Below are positions 3,927 through 20,760 of a stretch of DNA of 21,051 bases, piece by piece. Every line of letters begins with the position of its first letter. The first letter of the stretch is position 1. This DNA is from Armatimonadota bacterium (GTDB taxonomy: Bacteria > Armatimonadota > Hebobacteria > CAIYQO01): positions 1-21,051 of the forward strand of contig JBBRXO010000049.1 in assembly GCA_038248345.1 (NCBI GenBank). Reading direction: 5' to 3'. The notes under the pieces are model-generated. The model did no database searches. It had not been told where the DNA came from and saw only the letters and a list, made by a program, of their open reading frames with translations. Made by a program: the position numbers and the translations under genes.

Positions 3927-4089
3927 CCCGGGTACGCCAATCTCCGCACTCGCCCGTCCCACCCCGTCGAAAGGTGATGCTGTTTCGGCAGGTGGGGACA
4001 ATCCCCGCCGGAGGCTGAAAAAGAAAAAGAGGCTAACTATGGAAGGTCTTAATTACGCATATACCAGCTGCTGTGCGCGAGGACAGACC
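3927..4089 (+). repeat. Composite dispersed repeat, copy A (34-bp arm 3927-3960 plus 97-bp body 3993-4089)
   Basis: The arm is 31/34 identical to the reverse complement of 15017-15050; the body is 77/97 identical, ungapped, to the reverse complement of 14813-14909 (hand alignment). Confidence 0.85.
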
Positions 4090-4350
4090 ACTATTGTTGT
4101 CAAAAAGCATCGGTAGTTACTTGCGGATAACCTTGTTTTATCGTGCGATAATCTCCTTCAATATGCTATGGAGAGTAGTATTTTGCGTGCGGTTGACAAT
4201 CATTCTGGGGTAATTTACCGAATAGGAACATCGATTGTAAGAGCTAACCAACACGTGTATCATTTTTTTTACACACCAGCATGTTCTTCTCCGCTAATAT
4301 GTTTTTGACGCAAGCGAAGAGCTTGCGATCTAAAAAAAGGAGAACGTGTA

Positions 4351-4944
4351 ATGCAGAACACAATCTACGCAAGCTTTGACTCTAGTGATCAGGCAATTAA
4401 GGCCGCTGGAGCATTGTTGGATTACGGTGTAAAAAACGAGGATCTGACAATAATCAGCCAAGGTATCGAGTCTGAGCTGAATGCGGATGGAACTACTGTT
4501 CCAGCTGAGCAGGGCAATGGTAATGTCGTCGAGAATGCTGATGCCACGGCTAAAAATGGAATTAGTACGACTACCCCAGGCGACGCTGCCGCAGGTGCCG
4601 CAAAAGGCGCGGGAATCGGCTTAGGCGCAGGCGTCCTTGCCGGGTTGGCTTCCCTGCTAGTACCTGGATTCGGGTTGGTGATTGGCGGCGGCGCTCTTGC
4701 CATGGCTCTCACCGGCGCGGCCATCGCCACTGCCGGCGGTGGCATCGCGGGCGGCGTGACTGGCTTTCTGAAAGATCAGGGAATCCCGGAAGAACATATC
4801 GCCGCATACGACAAAGCAGTAAGCTCGGGCGGCGCTATAGTGGCGGTGACTCAGTCTTCAAACGAAGTAGACACAAGCCAGATCATGGAAGTACTTAATA
4901 AGTATGGAGCCATGTACATAAACGATCGAAGTCAAGGAGTATAA
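4351..4944 (+). CDS. General stress protein (YflT-like N-terminus with Gly/Ala-zipper membrane region)
   Basis: IYASFDSSDQAIKAAGALLDYGV..EDLTII; Gly-zipper GAAKGAGIGLGAGVLAGL..LLVPGFGLVIGGG; GIPEEHIAAYDKAVSSGGAIVAV. RBS AAGGAG at 4337-4342. Confidence 0.8.
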   Translation: MQNTIYASFDSSDQAIKAAGALLDYGVKNEDLTIISQGIESELNADGTTVPAEQGNGNVVENADATAKNGISTTTPGDAAAGAAKGAGIGLGAGVLAGLASLLVPGFGLVIGGGALAMALTGAAIATAGGGIAGGVTGFLKDQGIPEEHIAAYDKAVSSGGAIVAVTQSSNEVDTSQIMEVLNKYGAMYINDRSQGV

Positions 4945-4948
4945 AACT

Positions 4949-5554
4949 ATGGACAACAAAATCTCCTTGGGTGAGGATCTGATGCGGGAGCATGGGTTGA
5001 TGAATCGCATGATCCTGCTGTACAAGGAATCCGCTAGTTGTTTGGGGCAAAACCCCGATGCGAAGGATGTTCTTCAAAAGACCGCCAAGATCATGAAAGA
5101 GTTCATACATGACTTTCATGAAGAAAACGAAGAACACGATGTCTATCCGCTGTTGACGGACAACGCGAAGTTGCGCACCCTCACGGAGACGATGGAGAAG
5201 CAGCACGAGGTCGGCAAGCAAATCACTGAGTACATTATCAGCGCTACAAAAGCCGGCGATCCCGATGCTACCGCCCTCTCCGCGATGACAGCGGCGTTTG
5301 AACGGATGTATCTGCCGCACGCTTCGCTGGAAGACACGGTGCTCTGGCCCGCCCTTCAGGAGCTGAAAGGCGATGCTTTCTATATGAAACTGGGCGCTGA
5401 CCTCGAGAAAAAAGAAGAGGAACGGTTCGGCGAGGAGTATTTCGAGAAACTCGAAGCTAAAATCGAGAAGTTCGAGAAGAAACTCGGAATCGGTGATCTG
5501 GCGAAATTCACCGCTAGCGTTCCGGATTCTGCTGCCGCTGAAGAGATGGCCTGA
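4949..5554 (+). CDS. Hemerythrin/HHE cation-binding domain protein
   Basis: LMREH, FHEENEEHDVYP, QHEVGK and PHASLEDTVLWP give the H / HxxxE / H / HxxxE metal-ligand pattern. RBS AGGAG upstream. Confidence 0.88.
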   Translation: MDNKISLGEDLMREHGLMNRMILLYKESASCLGQNPDAKDVLQKTAKIMKEFIHDFHEENEEHDVYPLLTDNAKLRTLTETMEKQHEVGKQITEYIISATKAGDPDATALSAMTAAFERMYLPHASLEDTVLWPALQELKGDAFYMKLGADLEKKEEERFGEEYFEKLEAKIEKFEKKLGIGDLAKFTASVPDSAAAEEMA

Positions 5555-12257: not shown

Positions 12258-12911
12258 ATGGCTTTAGCGCTACGAAAAGTGAAATATCGGTATACCTACG
12301 GCGATTACCTGCACTGGGATGACAGCCGACGCTGGGAGATTATTGACGGCGAAGCTTATGACATGTCGCCTGCCCCTACTCGCAGGCACCAAAGAATATC
12401 CATTGAGTTGGTTCGGCAATTATCGAACTATCTTGTGGGAAAGAAATGCGAGGCCTATTCCGCTCCATTTGACGTAGTACTGCCCGTTCTCGGCGAGAAT
12501 GAAGAGGAATCTGAAACGGTAGTACAGCCGGATATCGTGGTTGTCTGCGATCAACGCAAATTGACCAAACGCGGTTGCACCGGCGCGCCGGAAATGGTGA
12601 TAGAGATACTCTCGCCGTCTACCGCGGTAAAAGACCTGAAGGTAAAGAAAGACCTCTATGAGCGCGCGGGCGTGCGCGAGTACTGGATTGTCCACCCCGA
12701 CGAGAAATGGGTGAACATCTTCCTGCGCGACGAAAAATCCAAATTAGCGCTCCTGGGAACCTTCAGCGCGGAAGACACCCCCGAAGTAAATATCCTACCC
12801 GGCCTGCAGATAGACCTGGCCCAAGTCTTCGCCGCATCCGCCTGGATGGAAGAGACGCTGGAGAAGAACAAAGTGGTACATGGGCCACCGGGGACTGGCG
12901 AAGGCGAGTAG
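12258..12911 (+). CDS. Uma2 family (PD-(D/E)XK) putative endonuclease
   Basis: RWEIIDG..YDMSPAP..RHQ, APFDV, VVQPDIVVVCD, GAPEMVIEILSPST..D..K..LYERAGVREYWIVHP. Confidence 0.95.
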   Translation: MALALRKVKYRYTYGDYLHWDDSRRWEIIDGEAYDMSPAPTRRHQRISIELVRQLSNYLVGKKCEAYSAPFDVVLPVLGENEEESETVVQPDIVVVCDQRKLTKRGCTGAPEMVIEILSPSTAVKDLKVKKDLYERAGVREYWIVHPDEKWVNIFLRDEKSKLALLGTFSAEDTPEVNILPGLQIDLAQVFAASAWMEETLEKNKVVHGPPGTGEGE

Positions 12912-12973
12912 CCCGCGCCCGCCGTGGCGCGTATCACTGGGGCAGATAAGGAATGGGTTATGGGGAGATCGAG

Positions 12974-13324
12974 TTATAAATCAAACGTCTCTCTTAGAGC
13001 AGCGTCTATTCCTTGTTGTACATCTACTGAACATGTTCCAATTTTTCTAATGATCTCTTTAGGGCTCATAGTCGCAATATTATCTACGATAATCATAGAG
13101 TCTATACTAAGCCCCATTTTATTGCCATCTTCACTATTATAGGATATAGGGATGCGCGTAGAGCCTGTTTTATTCAATTTTGAGGTTATGCACACAACGA
13201 GTTTATCACCATAAGTAGTAATTAGCTTATCGGATTGAACAATTAGTACAGGGCGCTTCTTATAGGTTATCTTATCAGCATTAGGAAATGAAACAAGCAC
13301 AACATCGCCCCGACTATAACTCAT
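12974..13324 (-). CDS. mazF: PemK/MazF family endoribonuclease toxin
   Basis: RGDVVLVSFP....KKRPVLIVQ, VVCITSK, GLSIDSMIIVDNIAT. Start ATG 13324 (or 13327) follows GGAGG and overlaps the upstream gene's last codons; the track's 13363 start is probably too long. Confidence 0.92.
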   Translation of the reverse strand: MSYSRGDVVLVSFPNADKITYKKRPVLIVQSDKLITTYGDKLVVCITSKLNKTGSTRIPISYNSEDGNKMGLSIDSMIIVDNIATMSPKEIIRKIGTCSVDVQQGIDAALRETFDL

Positions 13325-13676
13325 CATAAGCCTCCATACCAGGAGCATCCCAGTCTTGCTCAAATGATCTAAACCTCATACGGATTTCCATCGCCTCTTC
13401 TTGAGAAATGTTCATATCAGAAAGTAGTAATTGTTCCTTTACTGTTGTTTTGTGTACGCAAATAAGCCAACTTACACTATAGGCTTTGTCGAATCGACAT
13501 AGTTCATTTTCATTCACAGATTGTGTATACTCATAACCTGTACTTGCATACCAGGGTTGAGCGAATGCGCTAAAGTCTGCGAATGGCTTGAATTCATAAA
13601 TTGTCTTCATATTCCAAGTTAAAGGCGACTGTGAGACATCATAAATCTTCACGGGTGATGCATCGGTATTAACCAT
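13314..13676 (-). CDS. Putative antitoxin (120 aa) with an aromatic-rich N-terminal extension
   Basis: ATG 13676 overlaps the upstream stop and has a GGAGG RBS. The acidic C-terminus ISQEEAMEIRMRFRSFEQDWDAPGMEAYDEL resembles the DW..P.M..YD tails of antitoxins preceding mazF/pemK genes. Confidence 0.7.
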   Translation of the reverse strand: MVNTDASPVKIYDVSQSPLTWNMKTIYEFKPFADFSAFAQPWYASTGYEYTQSVNENELCRFDKAYSVSWLICVHKTTVKEQLLLSDMNISQEEAMEIRMRFRSFEQDWDAPGMEAYDEL

Positions 13677-14445
13677 TGAACTCATCCTCCAGATCACCTT
13701 TAATAAGGGTAAAAAATATATAATCTGTTTTTCTGTGTGCAGCTTCTAGCCATTCAGCAAAATCATCTTGCATTACAGGTACGTCATCATCAGTACTCTG
13801 AATTACTGTTTCCCATATTATTATAGGGCTTCCATTCCCATTTGAACCAGTAGCAAACCTGATGCTTATTTGGCCAATCGGATTATCACAGCGGAAAGAA
13901 GATATCCAGTTCAGATTATTCGGTTGCTGTTGAATATGAGTCCCATTAAAAAGAGCTTCCGGTAGATTAACATTAATTTTCAACTTTTCATGCAAAAAAG
14001 CAAATATGTCATTGTTATAATAATCAAAATTGACAGCGTCAACATAACGTAGTTGCAAACTGTTAATTCTAAATTCATCAGTTTTCGGATGCGCGTCATA
14101 TAATCTACGTACAACTTCAATTGCTCTATTCTGGAATTCACTCCACACATATTTATCGGTTTCGTTTAGTGTAAGCAATCCAGGTCCAAGTTGGATTAGT
14201 GGCCATTGGTCCGCGGCTACTCGAAATCTATGCTGTGGGATATATCCAGCAATTTCTTCTGGAAGCATTGATGATGGCAATTGTTCATGTGCAGGATAGT
14301 CAGGAGCAAGGCGATCATATAATCTTCCCATTAAAAGCTTATAGTGTGGGTCAATACTAGTATTTGGCGTTAAGACTTTCAGAGCCCATTTTATCTCTAA
14401 AATAACCTCAACGAGCGGTTTTGATTTCAGTACTATTTCTGACAT
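13669..14445 (-). CDS. TIGR04255-like protein
   Basis: KPLVEVILEIKW, HRFR...WPLIQLGPGLLTLN..KYVWSEF, INSLQLRYVD and AHRKTDYIFFTLI are characteristic of this family. Start ATG 14445 with GAGG RBS (track start 14481). Confidence 0.8.
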   Translation of the reverse strand: MSEIVLKSKPLVEVILEIKWALKVLTPNTSIDPHYKLLMGRLYDRLAPDYPAHEQLPSSMLPEEIAGYIPQHRFRVAADQWPLIQLGPGLLTLNETDKYVWSEFQNRAIEVVRRLYDAHPKTDEFRINSLQLRYVDAVNFDYYNNDIFAFLHEKLKINVNLPEALFNGTHIQQQPNNLNWISSFRCDNPIGQISIRFATGSNGNGSPIIIWETVIQSTDDDVPVMQDDFAEWLEAAHRKTDYIFFTLIKGDLEDEFNG

Positions 14446-14520
14446 AAATTTTTCCTCAACACCAGAACTAATCATTCCCATAATATATCACATTATTCAC
14501 GTAGTGTGTAGGCAAATCAG

Positions 14521-14743
14521 ATTCTGTCCAGGAGCGGCTGGCAATGTAAGGGATAGCCGTTCTCGTACTCCATTGTTATAGGCAACAAAGGAGGGCAACA
14601 TAGAGATTATGAACATCTTACTTGATAACAATGCTGATCCGAACATGACAGTTGAATCAGGTCGTATTTCTCCTCTGGGGCTGGCAATAAGGGAAAAGCA
14701 TCGTGATATTGAAGTTCTGTTAAGAAAGTACGGCGCTTGTTGA
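14521..14743 (+). pseudogene. Ankyrin-repeat gene remnant (absent from the ORF track)
   Basis: Frame from 14531: GAAGNVRDSRSRTPLL*ATKEGNIEIMNILLDNNADPNMTVESGRISPLGLAIREKHRDIEVLLRKYGAC*. This is two ankyrin repeats with an in-frame TAG at 14579-14581, a likely frameshift near 14530 and no start. Confidence 0.8.
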
Positions 14744-14770
14744 TAATAGTTCGAGTAGAACGATGCTAAC

Positions 14771-15050
14771 CTTGGGAACTCCAATCTCCGCATTGGCGTC
14801 TGGCCAAATCGGGGACTGTCCTCGCGTACAGCAGCGGGTATAAGCGTGATTTGTGCCTGCCATGGTTAGTCTCCCTTTCGTTTTCAGCCTGCGTTCGGGA
14901 CTGTCCCCAGCTGGGTAGCATAGACGAAAACGGGGGCAAATATGGGGGCTGTACTATTGGAAAACCGGGTGCTGTGCGCGAGGACAGTCCCGTTTTCCCC
15001 CGCCACTTCGTGGCGGGGGACGGGCCAATGCGGAGATTGGCGTTCCCGGG
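14771..15050 (-). repeat. Composite dispersed repeat, copy B, with nested inverted repeats (MITE/BIME-like)
   Basis: Outer IR 14771-14797 / 15024-15050 (GGGAAC-CCAATCTCCGCATTGGC); inner IR about 14812-14833 / 14970-14991 (GGGACTGTCCTCGCG-ACAGCA); perfect 11-bp hairpin 14996-15020; homologous to 3927-4089. Confidence 0.85.
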
Positions 15051-15057
15051 GTGTTAT

Positions 15058-16431
<1,374 letters not shown>

Positions 16432-16488: not shown

Positions 16489-16510
16489 AAGATGTGGCGG
16501 CGGTAGGTAC

Positions 16511-16858
16511 GTAGCATGGGTGTCTCGCCCATTCACCACGCGCTAAAGCACATGGCTATAAGATCAAGCACCCTGAAGGGCGCTATTGGCCAAGATTATT
16601 CATACGACCCTAACCATCATAAACTTGTTCCACCATGCATGACATCGTATCTTAATTTGTTCCTAACGTGGGCGCAAGCCTTGCGCCCCTACACCCACGT
16701 TGGGAACGTCGCTGAATTTTTTTCATCAACTTGAGGTGAATGGAAACCCCAATATTTCCGCTGGGATTGAAATCCCGGCTGCAGGGCACTGCGCGCCAGT
16801 CGTCCGCCATAGCCAGGATGGCGACGGCGGATTGTTAGCCACCTCCTTTAGGGGGTGG
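16511..16858. repeat. Cluster of REP-like palindromes of several types
   Basis: GTAGCATGGGTGTCTCGCCCAT (16511-16532); AGCACCCTGAAGGGCGCT (16567-16584); GGGCGCAA-GCC-TTGCGCCC-CTAC (16670-16692, a GTAG-led REP on the minus strand); 53-bp repeat copy 2 (16756-16808); TAGCCACCTCC-TTTA-GGGGGTGG (16836-16858). Confidence 0.8.
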
Positions 16859-17136: not shown

Positions 17137-20100
17137 ATGACAGACATATACCATAATGGAAATATGCAGGCGAATAATGACCCGCTGACGGGCCTGCCCA
17201 CCCTGAAAGGATGGGCGGGCGGATTGCCGGAAGGCCGTTTTGCATCTATGGGGCATATCCTCTCCCTGCGCCTCTCCGACCTGGTGCAAATAAATCAGAT
17301 GTACGGTTTGGCGGCGAGCGACATCCTCCTTACGCAGGTAGCGACATTGCTGAAAAATTGGCTCTCCGGGCAGCAACTGCTGGTACGCGAGTCGAGATCA
17401 GACGCCTTCTACCTCTGGATGCCCGGCAGTTCGCATGATGAAACGCAACAGCTGGCGTTGCGCTTGCAACAGTCGCTCTTTGCCTCCGGGGTGATGATTA
17501 CCAGCGGGGTAGAGATTCATCCGCGGATGGCAGTTACGATACTTCCCGTCGCGGCGCAGGCTAGCGTTTATAGTGTGATTGAAGAACTTGACCGCATGGA
17601 GGTACGCGAACCCGCTCTCGAAGCCCCCACCGTGAACAACGGCGATAGTGCGCTGGCGATGTTGAATGTCGCACTGGAGCATCATCGCACCTTCGGGTTG
17701 GAACAACTGATTGAGCAGATCCATGCCAGTATCAATCAGCAGTCAATGAAGCAGCCCCAGACGATCTTCTTACTGGCTCCGCCGCCAGCAGTTAAATCAC
17801 GTACACTGGGGGTCGTCGGGAGCTTTCTCGGCAGCAGCAATATTCCGATGGCGCACGTCTCTAGCCATGCCAGTGACCGTGACGTCAGTTGTGGTTTGTT
17901 AGTAGCAATTTTGCTGGCGCTGATGCCCTCTTATCAACCGGAGTTGCTCTTCGCCCGTGTGTTGCCACTCTGTGACGCTAGTCCATGGTTATGTGGGCTA
18001 TTCCCTACTTTAATAAAGCATGATGCCGCGCCGCCACCACCAGGCAATCACAAACTGGTCTGTGATACCCTGACACAAGTACTGCTGGCAATGGTGGAGA
18101 ATTACTCCGCCATTGTGATTATTAATGGGCTGAACTTCGCCGATAATGATTCAATTTCAGCGTTAGGGGCGTTGCAACAGCGCGATGATCATGGTCTGCT
18201 CATCCTCGCCGGGGTCGACCCGGAAAACAACGTCATGCCCGCACTGGTCAGCCCGCTGCTCTCCAGTAATACTGTCATCATCACCCAGCAACCTTTCAGC
18301 AAATTCATCATCGGAGAATACCTGAACAACGTACTCCCGGGGGTAAAAACTCCCGAACTAACCAACTTATTGCTGGAGCGTAGCGGTGGTTGGATTCTTG
18401 ATATTGAGGGTCTTTTGCGCTCCTGGGCGGAGAGTGGGGCGTTAAATCACGACTTTGGCAAATGGCATCTAGAGGCTACTACTATCCCTGCGGAGTTGTT
18501 CTCCGCGCTATCCCCGCAGGAGAAGCAATATCTGGCGCAAGCGGCACTGGTCTGCCCGGTCACGTTGGATTTCCTGACAACGTTGTGGAAATTCACCAAT
18601 AAGGGCATAACCATGGCGATTGTCACGCATGGTCGTGCCATGGGGTTGTTGCTGCCAGAAGATCCCAATAATCCCCAGCAGGTGGAATTCCGCGATGAAG
18701 AGTATGCAACGCAACTGACGGAACTGCTCTCGCAAGAGGAGGTCCTGCGGATTCATGCAGACATCTTCAAATTGATGGATGGCACGCCAACGCATCTGCC
18801 GCCTTTGCAGCAAAATCAAAACCCGCTAAGTGCCTTTGCGAATATCATTAAGACGCAACATCAGGGGGTGAATTACCATAGGGAAGAGGTGCCGGAGCCG
18901 CTCCCGCCCATCCGGCCACTGGAGCAGGGTGAACTGCCAATACTTATTGACGTACTGTTGATGATACGGCTAGTCGGCGTCGGCTATCGCTACTATCCGC
19001 CCAACTCCGAAATTGTACGTGAACATATGGAGTCAGCTATCGCCAAGTTAGCGGAAGTATTTCAGACACGTCCGGCGATATCCATCAGCACCGACGGGAG
19101 CAAAGTTGCTATCGAAGGCCGTACCGTGGATCGCCGCGACCTGGCCACGCCCTTGAAAGACTATCTAGCGTGGATGAATGAAGCGCACCTGAAGACGCTG
19201 GGCATAATGAAAGGTGTGACGACGAACGAACTGAAAGAGATGTTCATTACTATCGCTGAATATGATGGTCAGAATGATGCAGATCCATTGCTGGAGATTC
19301 TGCAGGGATTGAGTCTCCCGCACATACGCTTCATACCGCGACAAACTCAGATGAATGACGCTAGTGCGGGCACCATCAATTTGCCCGTGGAACTGGCCGG
19401 GTCACTGATGATGAATTTTGCGAACAACGCCGCACCTGCCGCATACGGTGCCCCCGGTGTTGCCGCACCTGCCAATACCCCCTTTGTTATCCCTGACGGA
19501 AAAAGGGGGTTGCCAGTGAGCGGGGGGGGCGGGCCAGCAGCATCCGTGGCACTGCCAGCATCGCCCGTTAACGCGCTGGAAACCCCGCGCACTATACCGA
19601 TATACAACCCAGCCTTCCTGACCGCCGATGAATGGGCAGAGATGCCAGTGGTAATGGAAGGGGCGAACAGCCAGGCACGCCAGGCAATGATGGAGAATCT
19701 CTATCGCTGGCTTTCCCACTCCCCGGAGATCGCCAGTAAACAGGAGAATGTATGCCTGGATAACCTGCTGCTGGAAAGACTGGAGCAAGAGCAAGATTCA
19801 GCGGCGATGCATGAAACAGCCCGCGCAGCCATGGAGCGGCTGCAGGCGCTGGTGCGGCGCCACGAGTGGAGCCAGATGCTTTCCATCGTGGAATCAGTGC
19901 ATAATCGCATCAGTAATGAAGATGATACGGGGTTGCAGGAAGAGATAGCCGCCATCCTTGACAGTACTGCCCAGTCTGATGAATTTCTCCAACTGGTGAA
20001 TGACGCGCTGAAAGATGCCGAACATATGGACGACTTACGGCGTCTCATCGGCTACTCTGGGAATATTACCTGGCCAATATTGATGAATACCCTCATCAAC

Positions 20101-20760
20101 TCCCCCGTGCTGCAGATACGAATGCGGGTGATGACGTTGATGAAAGAATACGGCCCGAAGGCCATGCCGTTACTCAAGGAAGAGTTACGCCACCCCTATC
20201 CCTGGTACGTCTACCGCAACCTGTTACTCGCAGCCAGTGAAATCGGTTCCCCGGAAGCGATGCCCGAAATCGCAACACTGCTGGGGCATATCGACCCCCG
20301 CGTGCGCTCCTCCGCGCTCAACGCTGCCATGCGCCTCGGGGGTGATGGATCAGCAAATATATACCTGCTGCAGGGTCTGAATGACAACGCACCTGAAGTC
20401 CGTGCGCAGGCGGCTTCCCTCGCGGGCACCTGCCGTGACCGCGCTGTGATGGCCAAACTGATCCAACTACTGCTACGCGGGATACTCGATAAGGATGAGC
20501 CAGAAAATATTCAGATAGCAGCCACCCTGGCACTGGGCCAATTTGAGGAAAAAGAGGCGCGTGCGTGCCTGATCAATATTCTCTCCCCGCGCATCTTTCG
20601 CCGCAAGCCAGATCACGTCCGCGTCGCGGCCGTCAACGCCCTCGCCGCCCACCTCGCTGACCCTACCGTCCAAGATGCGCTAAAACAAGCCGCCCAGGAC
20701 CGCAACCGCACCATTAAAATAGCGGCTAACCGGGTGTTGCAGCAGTTGAAGACTAACTAA
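17137..20760 (+). CDS. 1207-aa multidomain protein: degenerate GGDEF domain, degenerate STAND/AAA-like ATPase domain and C-terminal HEAT repeats
   Basis: DPLTGLP and INQMYG..SDILLTQVA (GGDEF scaffold, with SRSDAF at the active-site position); LLAPPPAVKSR, IVIINGLNFAD and ERSGGWILDIEGLL (STAND-like); WYVYRNL, DPRVRSSA, APEVRAQAA and HVRVAAVNAL (HEAT). Confidence 0.8.
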   Translation: MTDIYHNGNMQANNDPLTGLPTLKGWAGGLPEGRFASMGHILSLRLSDLVQINQMYGLAASDILLTQVATLLKNWLSGQQLLVRESRSDAFYLWMPGSSHDETQQLALRLQQSLFASGVMITSGVEIHPRMAVTILPVAAQASVYSVIEELDRMEVREPALEAPTVNNGDSALAMLNVALEHHRTFGLEQLIEQIHASINQQSMKQPQTIFLLAPPPAVKSRTLGVVGSFLGSSNIPMAHVSSHASDRDVSCGLLVAILLALMPSYQPELLFARVLPLCDASPWLCGLFPTLIKHDAAPPPPGNHKLVCDTLTQVLLAMVENYSAIVIINGLNFADNDSISALGALQQRDDHGLLILAGVDPENNVMPALVSPLLSSNTVIITQQPFSKFIIGEYLNNVLPGVKTPELTNLLLERSGGWILDIEGLLRSWAESGALNHDFGKWHLEATTIPAELFSALSPQEKQYLAQAALVCPVTLDFLTTLWKFTNKGITMAIVTHGRAMGLLLPEDPNNPQQVEFRDEEYATQLTELLSQEEVLRIHADIFKLMDGTPTHLPPLQQNQNPLSAFANIIKTQHQGVNYHREEVPEPLPPIRPLEQGELPILIDVLLMIRLVGVGYRYYPPNSEIVREHMESAIAKLAEVFQTRPAISISTDGSKVAIEGRTVDRRDLATPLKDYLAWMNEAHLKTLGIMKGVTTNELKEMFITIAEYDGQNDADPLLEILQGLSLPHIRFIPRQTQMNDASAGTINLPVELAGSLMMNFANNAAPAAYGAPGVAAPANTPFVIPDGKRGLPVSGGGGPAASVALPASPVNALETPRTIPIYNPAFLTADEWAEMPVVMEGANSQARQAMMENLYRWLSHSPEIASKQENVCLDNLLLERLEQEQDSAAMHETARAAMERLQALVRRHEWSQMLSIVESVHNRISNEDDTGLQEEIAAILDSTAQSDEFLQLVNDALKDAEHMDDLRRLIGYSGNITWPILMNTLINSPVLQIRMRVMTLMKEYGPKAMPLLKEELRHPYPWYVYRNLLLAASEIGSPEAMPEIATLLGHIDPRVRSSALNAAMRLGGDGSANIYLLQGLNDNAPEVRAQAASLAGTCRDRAVMAKLIQLLLRGILDKDEPENIQIAATLALGQFEEKEARACLINILSPRIFRRKPDHVRVAAVNALAAHLADPTVQDALKQAAQDRNRTIKIAANRVLQQLKTN

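Follow-up and report, generated by a model that had tools for sequence, protein, structure and literature searches.

A MazF-armed member of a widespread family of three-gene toxin-antitoxin cassettes built on a TIGR04255 protein in an Armatimonadota bacterium

Toxin-antitoxin-chaperone (TAC) systems are described, in the available parts of two sources, as toxin-antitoxin (TA) pairs followed by a gene for a SecB-like protein, with a graftable C-terminal addiction element on the antitoxin; the examples given there are HigBAC of M. tuberculosis and MqsRAC, HigBAC and CmdTAC of E. coli (10.1101/2024.02.24.581848; PMC11618068). The TAC extensions known from these parts end in a ClpXP degron (10.1101/2024.02.24.581848; PMC11618068) and are modular grafts (10.1101/2024.02.24.581848). 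Another three-part system, DS-42 (PRO1) of E. coli, is made up, in the portion of its source at hand, of a 238-aa protein, a second protein of 190 aa that overlaps it and is rich in Ser/Thr at its front, and an MBL hydrolase effector, and in one row its protection is weak, with a -log efficiency of plating of 1.1 on Bas1 (PMC13092281). Here we report on a minus-strand trio of genes (g1, g2 and g3) in a 21,051-nucleotide stretch of an Armatimonadota bacterium (contig JBBRXO010000049.1, positions 1 to 21,051, assembly GCA_038248345.1; the window hereafter), which encode a TIGR04255-family protein, a predicted antitoxin and a predicted toxin of the MazF/PemK endoribonuclease family. The locus belongs to a large family of three-gene TA cassettes that have the TIGR04255 protein in common, and is one of those armed with MazF.

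The trio consists of g1 (14445-13669, 258 aa), g2 (13676-13314, 120 aa), whose start overlaps the g1 stop by 8 nt, and g3 (13324-12974, 116 aa, or 117 aa if the ATG at 13327 is used), which begins 11 nt inside the end of g2. Ribosome-binding sites of sequence GGAGG lie inside g1 (13686..13690, 9 nt before the g2 start) and inside g2 (13331..13335, 6 nt before the g3 start), so that the overlapping architecture proposed in an initial annotation of this DNA is borne out; a GAGGA site precedes g1 (14453..14457), which overlaps no gene upstream. The g1/g2 overlap recurs in most homologues. The g1 protein matches NCBIfam TIGR04255 over its full length (residues 6-257 on profile positions 2-252) with an E value of 8.5e-29 and 101.1 bits, far over the curated cut-off of 30. 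The g3 protein belongs to PF02452 PemK/MazF (E 6e-18, 65.5 bits for a gathering score of 23.1), has a profile match to EndoA (E 1.6e-10), and has R24 and T47, both conserved in its subfamily, where MazF toxins carry their catalytic Arg and Thr. As in type II TA systems, its antitoxin gene is upstream and coupled, and the C-terminal part of that antitoxin co-segregates with the toxin. The g2 protein has no match in Pfam, NCBIfam, PADLOC or PHROG.

Relatives of g1 are numerous: 503 are present in a 90% database, the TIGR04255 family forms at least 1,728 clusters at 50% identity, and its profile finds matches in 59 of 301 host-phylum genomes versus none of 14 control genomes. We collected a close set of 160 loci, namely the best 80 of 220 genome loci and the best 80 of at least 521 metagenome loci, which is biased to close relatives, and a distant set of the best-scoring 30 of 79 listed profile matches, 28 of which are only 13-20% identical to g1. 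An open reading frame (ORF) of 95-260 aa starts -14 to +25 nt from the g1 stop in 145 of the 160 close loci, and 12 of the 15 loci without such a coupled middle ORF are contig ends. All 30 distant loci keep the order of g1, middle gene and toxin gene where the contig allows, and g1 comes first in the window and in every locus examined, which confirms the expectation that the three-gene linkage is conserved elsewhere. The layout is also present at four plasmid loci and one phage locus, where some middle genes have a helix-turn-helix (HTH)-like domain. A tblastn search with g1 found no match in phages and plasmids, nor was there any in viral contigs; an alignment search gave two viral loci, and searches with distant members gave eight plasmid and two phage records.

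What varies is the gene in the toxin slot. In the 160 close loci this gene belongs to families labelled QDCD (85), MazF (25), QSCD (22) or PIN (8), with six others and 14 too short to assess, and after de-duplication at 95% (134 loci) the corresponding counts are 69, 19, 21, 8, five and 12. The MazF trio as found here makes up 25 of the 146 assessable related loci. It occurs in archaea and, among bacteria, in Thermodesulfobacteriota, Gammaproteobacteria, Deltaproteobacteria, Planctomycetota, Atribacteria and Cloacimonadota; three of the 25 (L041, L150, L157) have another type of MazF and tail. The six others are DUF7689 (L036), HEPN-like (L040, L146), ART-like (L143) and two with a MazF-type tail and no MazF (L010, L031). 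In the 30 distant loci the slot holds nine HEPN-like, eight ART-like, eight QxCD (QDCD or QSCD) and three PIN genes, one HNH gene, one gene that is cut off, and no MazF. Five of these nine HEPN-like calls have a Pfam E value of 0.02 or better, two of them over the cut-off; the remaining ones are presumably HEPN-like by motif, and likewise the ART-like genes, one of which matches PDC-M32B. On a g1 tree (quick IQ-TREE of 120 proteins, with the 14 short loci left out and 90% near-duplicates removed), the MazF label requires 13 changes, at least seven of them forced by starred branches, and starred sisters carry different toxins (QDCD in L007, MazF in L100). The TIGR04255-antitoxin-toxin cassette is widespread and its toxin interchangeable. 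The initial annotation had read the trio as a MazF TA pair with an additional gene; this arrangement does recur, but the family is far larger, and MazF is a swappable payload that only a minority of its loci carry.

Three of the loci have an unusual structure. The whole trio occurs twice, head to head, on one metagenome contig (L083:2036-3525 and 3989-5463), which reflects either a genuine inverted duplication or an error of assembly. At L010:4767-5321 an antitoxin with a MazF tail is fused to an extra segment, with no MazF, and at L031:3989-4918 the TIGR04255 frame continues into antitoxin-like sequence; both are decayed or rearranged copies.

The commonest toxin-slot gene of TIGR04255 operons, found in two-gene pairs too, is the unnamed QxCD family, a payload of 107 close loci. 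It is 170-230 aa long with QGD and Q-x-C-D motifs (L046:5051-5572, L007:5132-5785 and 105 further loci), and longer forms of about 280 aa occur on plasmids (L217-L221). It has no match in Pfam, NCBIfam, PADLOC or the PDB and no alignment to the MazF profiles, while its QDCD and QSCD branches align with each other at a probability of 93.7. QxCD is likely a toxin of unassigned fold; a MazF-like fold is a guess. Eighteen of 28 QxCD matches adjoin a TIGR04255 match.

The g2 protein consists of two parts, an N-terminal extension (residues 1-82, 13431..13676, minus strand) and an acidic tail specific to MazF partners, the predicted neutralising module (residues 83-120, 13314..13430, minus strand). 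Profiles of the last 42 residues of the middle proteins (tails) and of the first 78 (fronts) were compared between toxin classes, within-class hits being circular and not counted. Tail profiles match their own toxin class only, with no cross-class hit, and the g2 tail matches the MazF-class tail profile at an E value of 5.5e-22. In contrast, front profiles cross classes: MazF to QDCD in 47 of 84, QDCD to MazF in 13 of 24, QSCD to PIN in 5 of 8 and PIN to QSCD in 18 of 22. Because tail profiles are class-specific, front profiles cross classes and the MazF label changes on the g1 tree, tail and toxin are exchanged together while g1 and the front are retained. Over 21 disjoint pairs, dN/dS is 0.39 for the extension, 0.13 for g1 and 0.27 for the tail, and by this measure the extension is coding and under purifying selection. 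The aromatic-rich extension of the initial annotation is a trait of this copy, with 14 F/W/Y in residues 1-78, above each of 145 homologues, but not of the family, in which the median is 7 (9.3%) and the extension is Ser/Thr-rich (19%).

Stand-alone MazF modules offer a reverse test. Of 29 loci that hold the closest MazF relatives from 401 host-phylum genomes, 28 allow at least 1.2 kb to be inspected; none of the 29 has TIGR04255 upstream, and 24 have a related tail on an antitoxin of mostly 76-96 aa with a different short front. The g2 tail aligns to these stand-alone tails with an hhalign probability of 98.5 and an E value of 2.7e-15, which argues firmly for their homology. The short front, which has no match in the PDB, is from its motifs presumably a DUF104/AbrB-like (15) or a ribbon-helix-helix domain. 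Since stand-alone antitoxins share the tail, carry a short front and lack TIGR04255, these comparisons support the interpretation that the fast-evolving extension replaces a DNA-binding-type domain exactly where the TIGR04255 gene appears, and that it is N-terminal and linked to this gene across toxin classes. It is a candidate chaperone-addiction-like element. The notion of an extended antitoxin, with a MazF-specific tail and an extension occurring only with the TIGR04255 gene, has thus held up. A second copy in the host genome (G000:C53:4843-5200, minus strand) comprises an antitoxin of about 70 aa that shares its tail with g2 (64% over 42 aa), no TIGR04255 gene, and a MazF 86% identical to g3 that is cut off after about 37 residues.

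The structure model of g1 (pLDDT 97) is a two-lobed curved beta-sheet, each lobe running strand, helix, three or four strands, helix. Fold searches with the model return, at middling scores, TBP-like, helix-grip and guanido-kinase-type curved sheets; the ranked matches of the whole and C-half models are TBP, AdoMetDC, YwmB, START/Bet v1 and guanido kinases, at middling Z scores (no pairwise superposition on SecB was made), with RepDE also among the structural neighbours. The helix after the first strand in each half is a TBP-like pattern, and no sequence repeat was found between the halves. The ESM Atlas holds only matches to TIGR04255 or 'hypothetical' clusters, and BFVD one unnamed protein at a TM score of 0.50 beside TBP-like viral proteins at low TM. 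No PDB sequence relatives were found for g1, g2 or the QxCD family, and none of the TIGR04255 proteins scanned matches a PADLOC model. The protein is acidic (pI 4.9, net charge -13), as is its family, with a median pI of 5.3-5.5 and a pI above 8 in none of 39 diverse and about one of 160 close members. SecB-type chaperones are acidic.

We infer that g1 is the guardian of the antitoxin, as a chaperone or a sensor, and consider it probable, though not by much, that the trio acts in a TAC-like manner, in which g1 would bind and protect the g2 extension, the tail would block MazF, and loss of g1 binding would release the RNase. The g1 protein would be made first and catch the g2 extension as it emerges, most likely with the concave side of its sheet, an event that the translational coupling of g1 and g2 would favour. 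The tail would fill the cleft of the MazF dimer, as in ordinary MazE-type antitoxins, until a foreign protein, for instance from a phage, competes for g1 and leaves g2 exposed to proteolysis or aggregation; free MazF would then cut RNA, leading to a growth halt or aborted infection. Together, g1 and the extension would constitute a sensor platform that has been used again and again, with many different toxin-tail pairs attached to it. A complex prediction of g1 with residues 1-82 of g2 gave, with no controls run, ipSAE values of 0.09 and 0.01 for a mark of 0.32, which count neither way.

The genomic context of the family bears on the putative role in defence. The commonest upstream neighbour is an SNF2/ResIII-NOV_C helicase (in 18 of the 121 loci that have an ORF upstream), DUF1156 methylases lie downstream in several loci, and restriction genes and integrases recur. 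At L007, L085, L083 and L082 the helicase gene is followed by the trio, with a DUF1156 methylase next in several. Because the helicase precedes the trio in at least 18 loci and the methylase follows in several, the trio appears to be embedded in a restriction-modification-like operon at such loci. A supplement of DefensePredictor (PMC13092281), in the two of eight places seen, has TIGR04255 proteins as predicted novel defence genes. We regard the defence context as suggestive but mixed.

Several observations weigh against the TAC-like reading. The front of this g2 is too diverged to match any of the four front profiles, so that the role of its extension is argued from position and length, and the extension, which lacks any strongly conserved motif, changes at roughly three times the rate of g1. 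We identified no degron in g2, and the known TAC extensions are C-terminal and degron-ended, whereas this one is N-terminal. Both the tail and MazF occur elsewhere without the TIGR04255 gene, for which reason they may not need g1 here. Ten of the 28 QxCD matches have no adjoining TIGR04255 match, several being plain two-gene pairs and some unclear, with a remote TIGR04255-like gene at one of them (L242, E 0.07) and a 222-aa gene that weakly resembles DS-42A at another (L229). Conserved charged residues in g1 would fit an enzyme too. As for defence, the 66 representatives of upstream gene clusters that were scanned are for the most part housekeeping or unannotated, and this copy lies between glyQS and uma2 and not in a clear defence island.

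One alternative, which we hold to be unlikely, though worth keeping in mind, is an enzymatic g1 that switches the antitoxin on or off by covalent modification (or processing) of its Ser/Thr-rich extension, or else a g1 that does so by sensing a small ligand. That g1 is instead a remote tandem SecB-fold chaperone, and the trio a plain TAC with reversed gene order, as the initial annotation suggested, seems to us improbable. The order of elements in its C-half (strand, three-strand meander, long helix, short helix) is SecB-like except for one inserted helix, and its acidity would agree. TAC chaperones can drift far, since the validated CmdC aligns to SecB at just 4.13 A root-mean-square deviation in the available part of its description (PMC11618068). 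In each half, however, a helix comes after the first strand, as in TBP-like folds, the fold searches rank the non-SecB matches named above first, and the halves show no sequence repeat.

The second copy with its short antitoxin, the existence of the same tail and MazF subfamily as two-gene modules, and an extension of low conservation, which cannot be recognised in this copy, would all fit a g1 that is an independent defence or accessory gene next to a self-sufficient g2-g3 pair, the extension being a leftover spacer kept by translational coupling. Yet g1 nearly always comes with a coupled middle gene, across toxins and phyla, and the extension is under purifying selection and retained through swaps of tail and toxin, so we give this explanation only a small chance. 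Smaller still, in our view, is the chance that g1 regulates the operon by binding DNA or RNA, in place of the DNA-binding domain that the antitoxin has lost, by an omega-epsilon-zeta or paaR-like logic. The extension does occupy the position of the DNA-binding-type domain of stand-alone relatives, and TBP and RepDE are among the structural neighbours of g1, but the family is acidic as described, the antitoxins at the four plasmid loci (213-228 aa) carry an extension and at least two of them an HTH-like domain of their own, and retention of the extension would be left unexplained.

The cassette is most likely a recent horizontal insert, which we deduce from its low GC content, an empty site in a related genome and REP-like repeats at both edges. 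The trio block has a GC content of 0.376, its two flanks have 0.58 and 0.61 and the genome as a whole 0.54; only 0.09% of 5,516 equal-sized genome windows are as AT-rich, and third-position GC is 0.27-0.35 in the trio genes versus 0.62-0.88 in glyQS, uma2 and a major facilitator superfamily (MFS) gene. In the same-genus genome G187 (C134; 77% complete), both flanks are on one contig with no cassette in between, at an interval of 318 bp versus 1,856 bp here. Horizontal acquisition is upheld by base composition and by this empty site, and the AT-rich block described by the initial annotation is real but wider than noted, at about 12940..14770 between glyQS and uma2, the latter convergent with the cassette and glyQS on its other side. 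At the downstream edge lies a short REP-like repeat (12908..12931) with 51 exact genome copies, present at the empty site of G187, and at the upstream edge a cluster of genome-wide intergenic repeats (14761..15066; 41 BLAST hits on 31 contigs). An integron-cassette origin is not supported, the flanking repeats being genome-wide REP-like elements (no attC model search was made), and a 98-aa ORF (14497-14793), which has no family match, was not accepted as a further gene of the cassette. Scans for promoters and terminators gave no more than chance would (4 hits, with 5.9 expected).

Other features of the window are a Uma2-family endonuclease (12258-12911; PADLOC PDC-S03, E 1.9e-55) with several paralogues in this genome, and short intergenic repeat families in tens of genome copies (12908-12931, 14761-15066, 16500-16830 and 3930-4090), which are REP-like and occur also in the same-genus genome. 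An overlapping pair of lower GC (0.47 and 0.44; 346-1356 and 1350-2114) encodes a MarR-like HTH protein and a 254-aa protein without a family match, the start of which resembles a nucleotidyltransferase motif; the pair is possibly a type IV TA or AbiE-like system. A 1,207-aa protein (17137-20760) has an N-terminal degenerate GGDEF domain and C-terminal HEAT repeats.

The initial annotation did not recognise the combination as a characterised system, and the literature searched agrees. TIGR04255 and its other identifiers appear in no main text searched, a scope that leaves aside figures, bioRxiv supplements and most subscription papers. Concept searches returned no such trio, figures such as Fig. 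S1A of 10.1101/2024.02.24.581848 being outside their scope, and none was found in the available parts of PMC10440598, PMC11980606, PMC13069673, PMC12429752, 10.64898/2026.10.19.760177 and 10.1101/2025.01.08.631726. Our analysis proposes a testable role for a widespread protein family unnamed in those main texts, reveals a large three-part TA class that two-gene surveys would miss by design, and brings to light, in the unnamed QxCD family, a candidate toxin that is common. If g1 is a sensor, TAC-type immunity would have arisen a second time on another scaffold, and nature would provide evidence of one sensor re-armed with at least seven toxin types, of use in finding phage triggers and building conditional switches. 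We tentatively propose, as somewhat less than an even prospect, that TIGR04255 is a second, non-SecB class of sensor-chaperone acting through an N-terminal addiction segment, a plug-and-play immune platform arming MazF, PIN, HEPN, ART-like, HNH, DUF7689 and QxCD toxins, which may extend to DS-42 and explain that system.

Compared with MazEF/PemIK modules, whose nearest solved members are B. subtilis EndoA (4MDX/4ME7), M. tuberculosis MazF6 and S. aureus MazF, the locus shares a PF02452 toxin with its catalytic positions kept and an antitoxin tail homologous to those of stand-alone antitoxins, but g2 lacks a recognisable DNA-binding domain, has an extension of about 80 aa in its place, and follows a TIGR04255 gene to which it is coupled. 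In the ART-like trios the antitoxin domain matches PDC-M32A (E 7e-8) and the toxin PDC-M32B (E 2e-4), unlike g2 and g3 of the window, which have no match to PDC-M32.

With DS-42, as far as the available part of its source goes, the trio shares the three-part layout, and one UniRef homologue of the first DS-42 protein is named 'TIGR04255 family protein'. The effector differs, being an MBL hydrolase and not MazF, as does the C-terminal domain of the middle gene. The first DS-42 protein has no match to TIGR04255, and no hhalign match to the g1 profiles, though the DS-42A profiles are shallow (Neff 1.3-2.4). A 222-aa protein without a TIGR04255 match (L229:298-966) precedes a Ser/Thr-rich antitoxin and a QSCD gene, and its weak alignment to DS-42A (E 0.07, 101 columns) is a hint of a wider superfamily.

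The TAC systems remain the closest in overall plan. As in these, a conserved operon combines toxin, antitoxin and a dedicated third gene, the predicted toxin is of a translation-targeting kind, the antitoxin joins a predicted neutralising part to a grafted and poorly conserved extension, and the third protein stays constant while the toxin-antitoxin warhead is exchanged. In contrast to TACs, where the TA pair precedes the chaperone gene, the third gene here comes first, followed by antitoxin and toxin; the addiction element of TACs is C-terminal with a degron, while the extension here is N-terminal and Ser/Thr-rich; the third protein has 258 aa and a two-lobed model whose best matches are folds other than SecB; and the available parts of the sources name none of the payloads MazF, PIN, HEPN-like, HNH and QxCD as TAC toxins. 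By inference, the cassette would follow the logic of a TAC with both its gene order and the position of its extension reversed.
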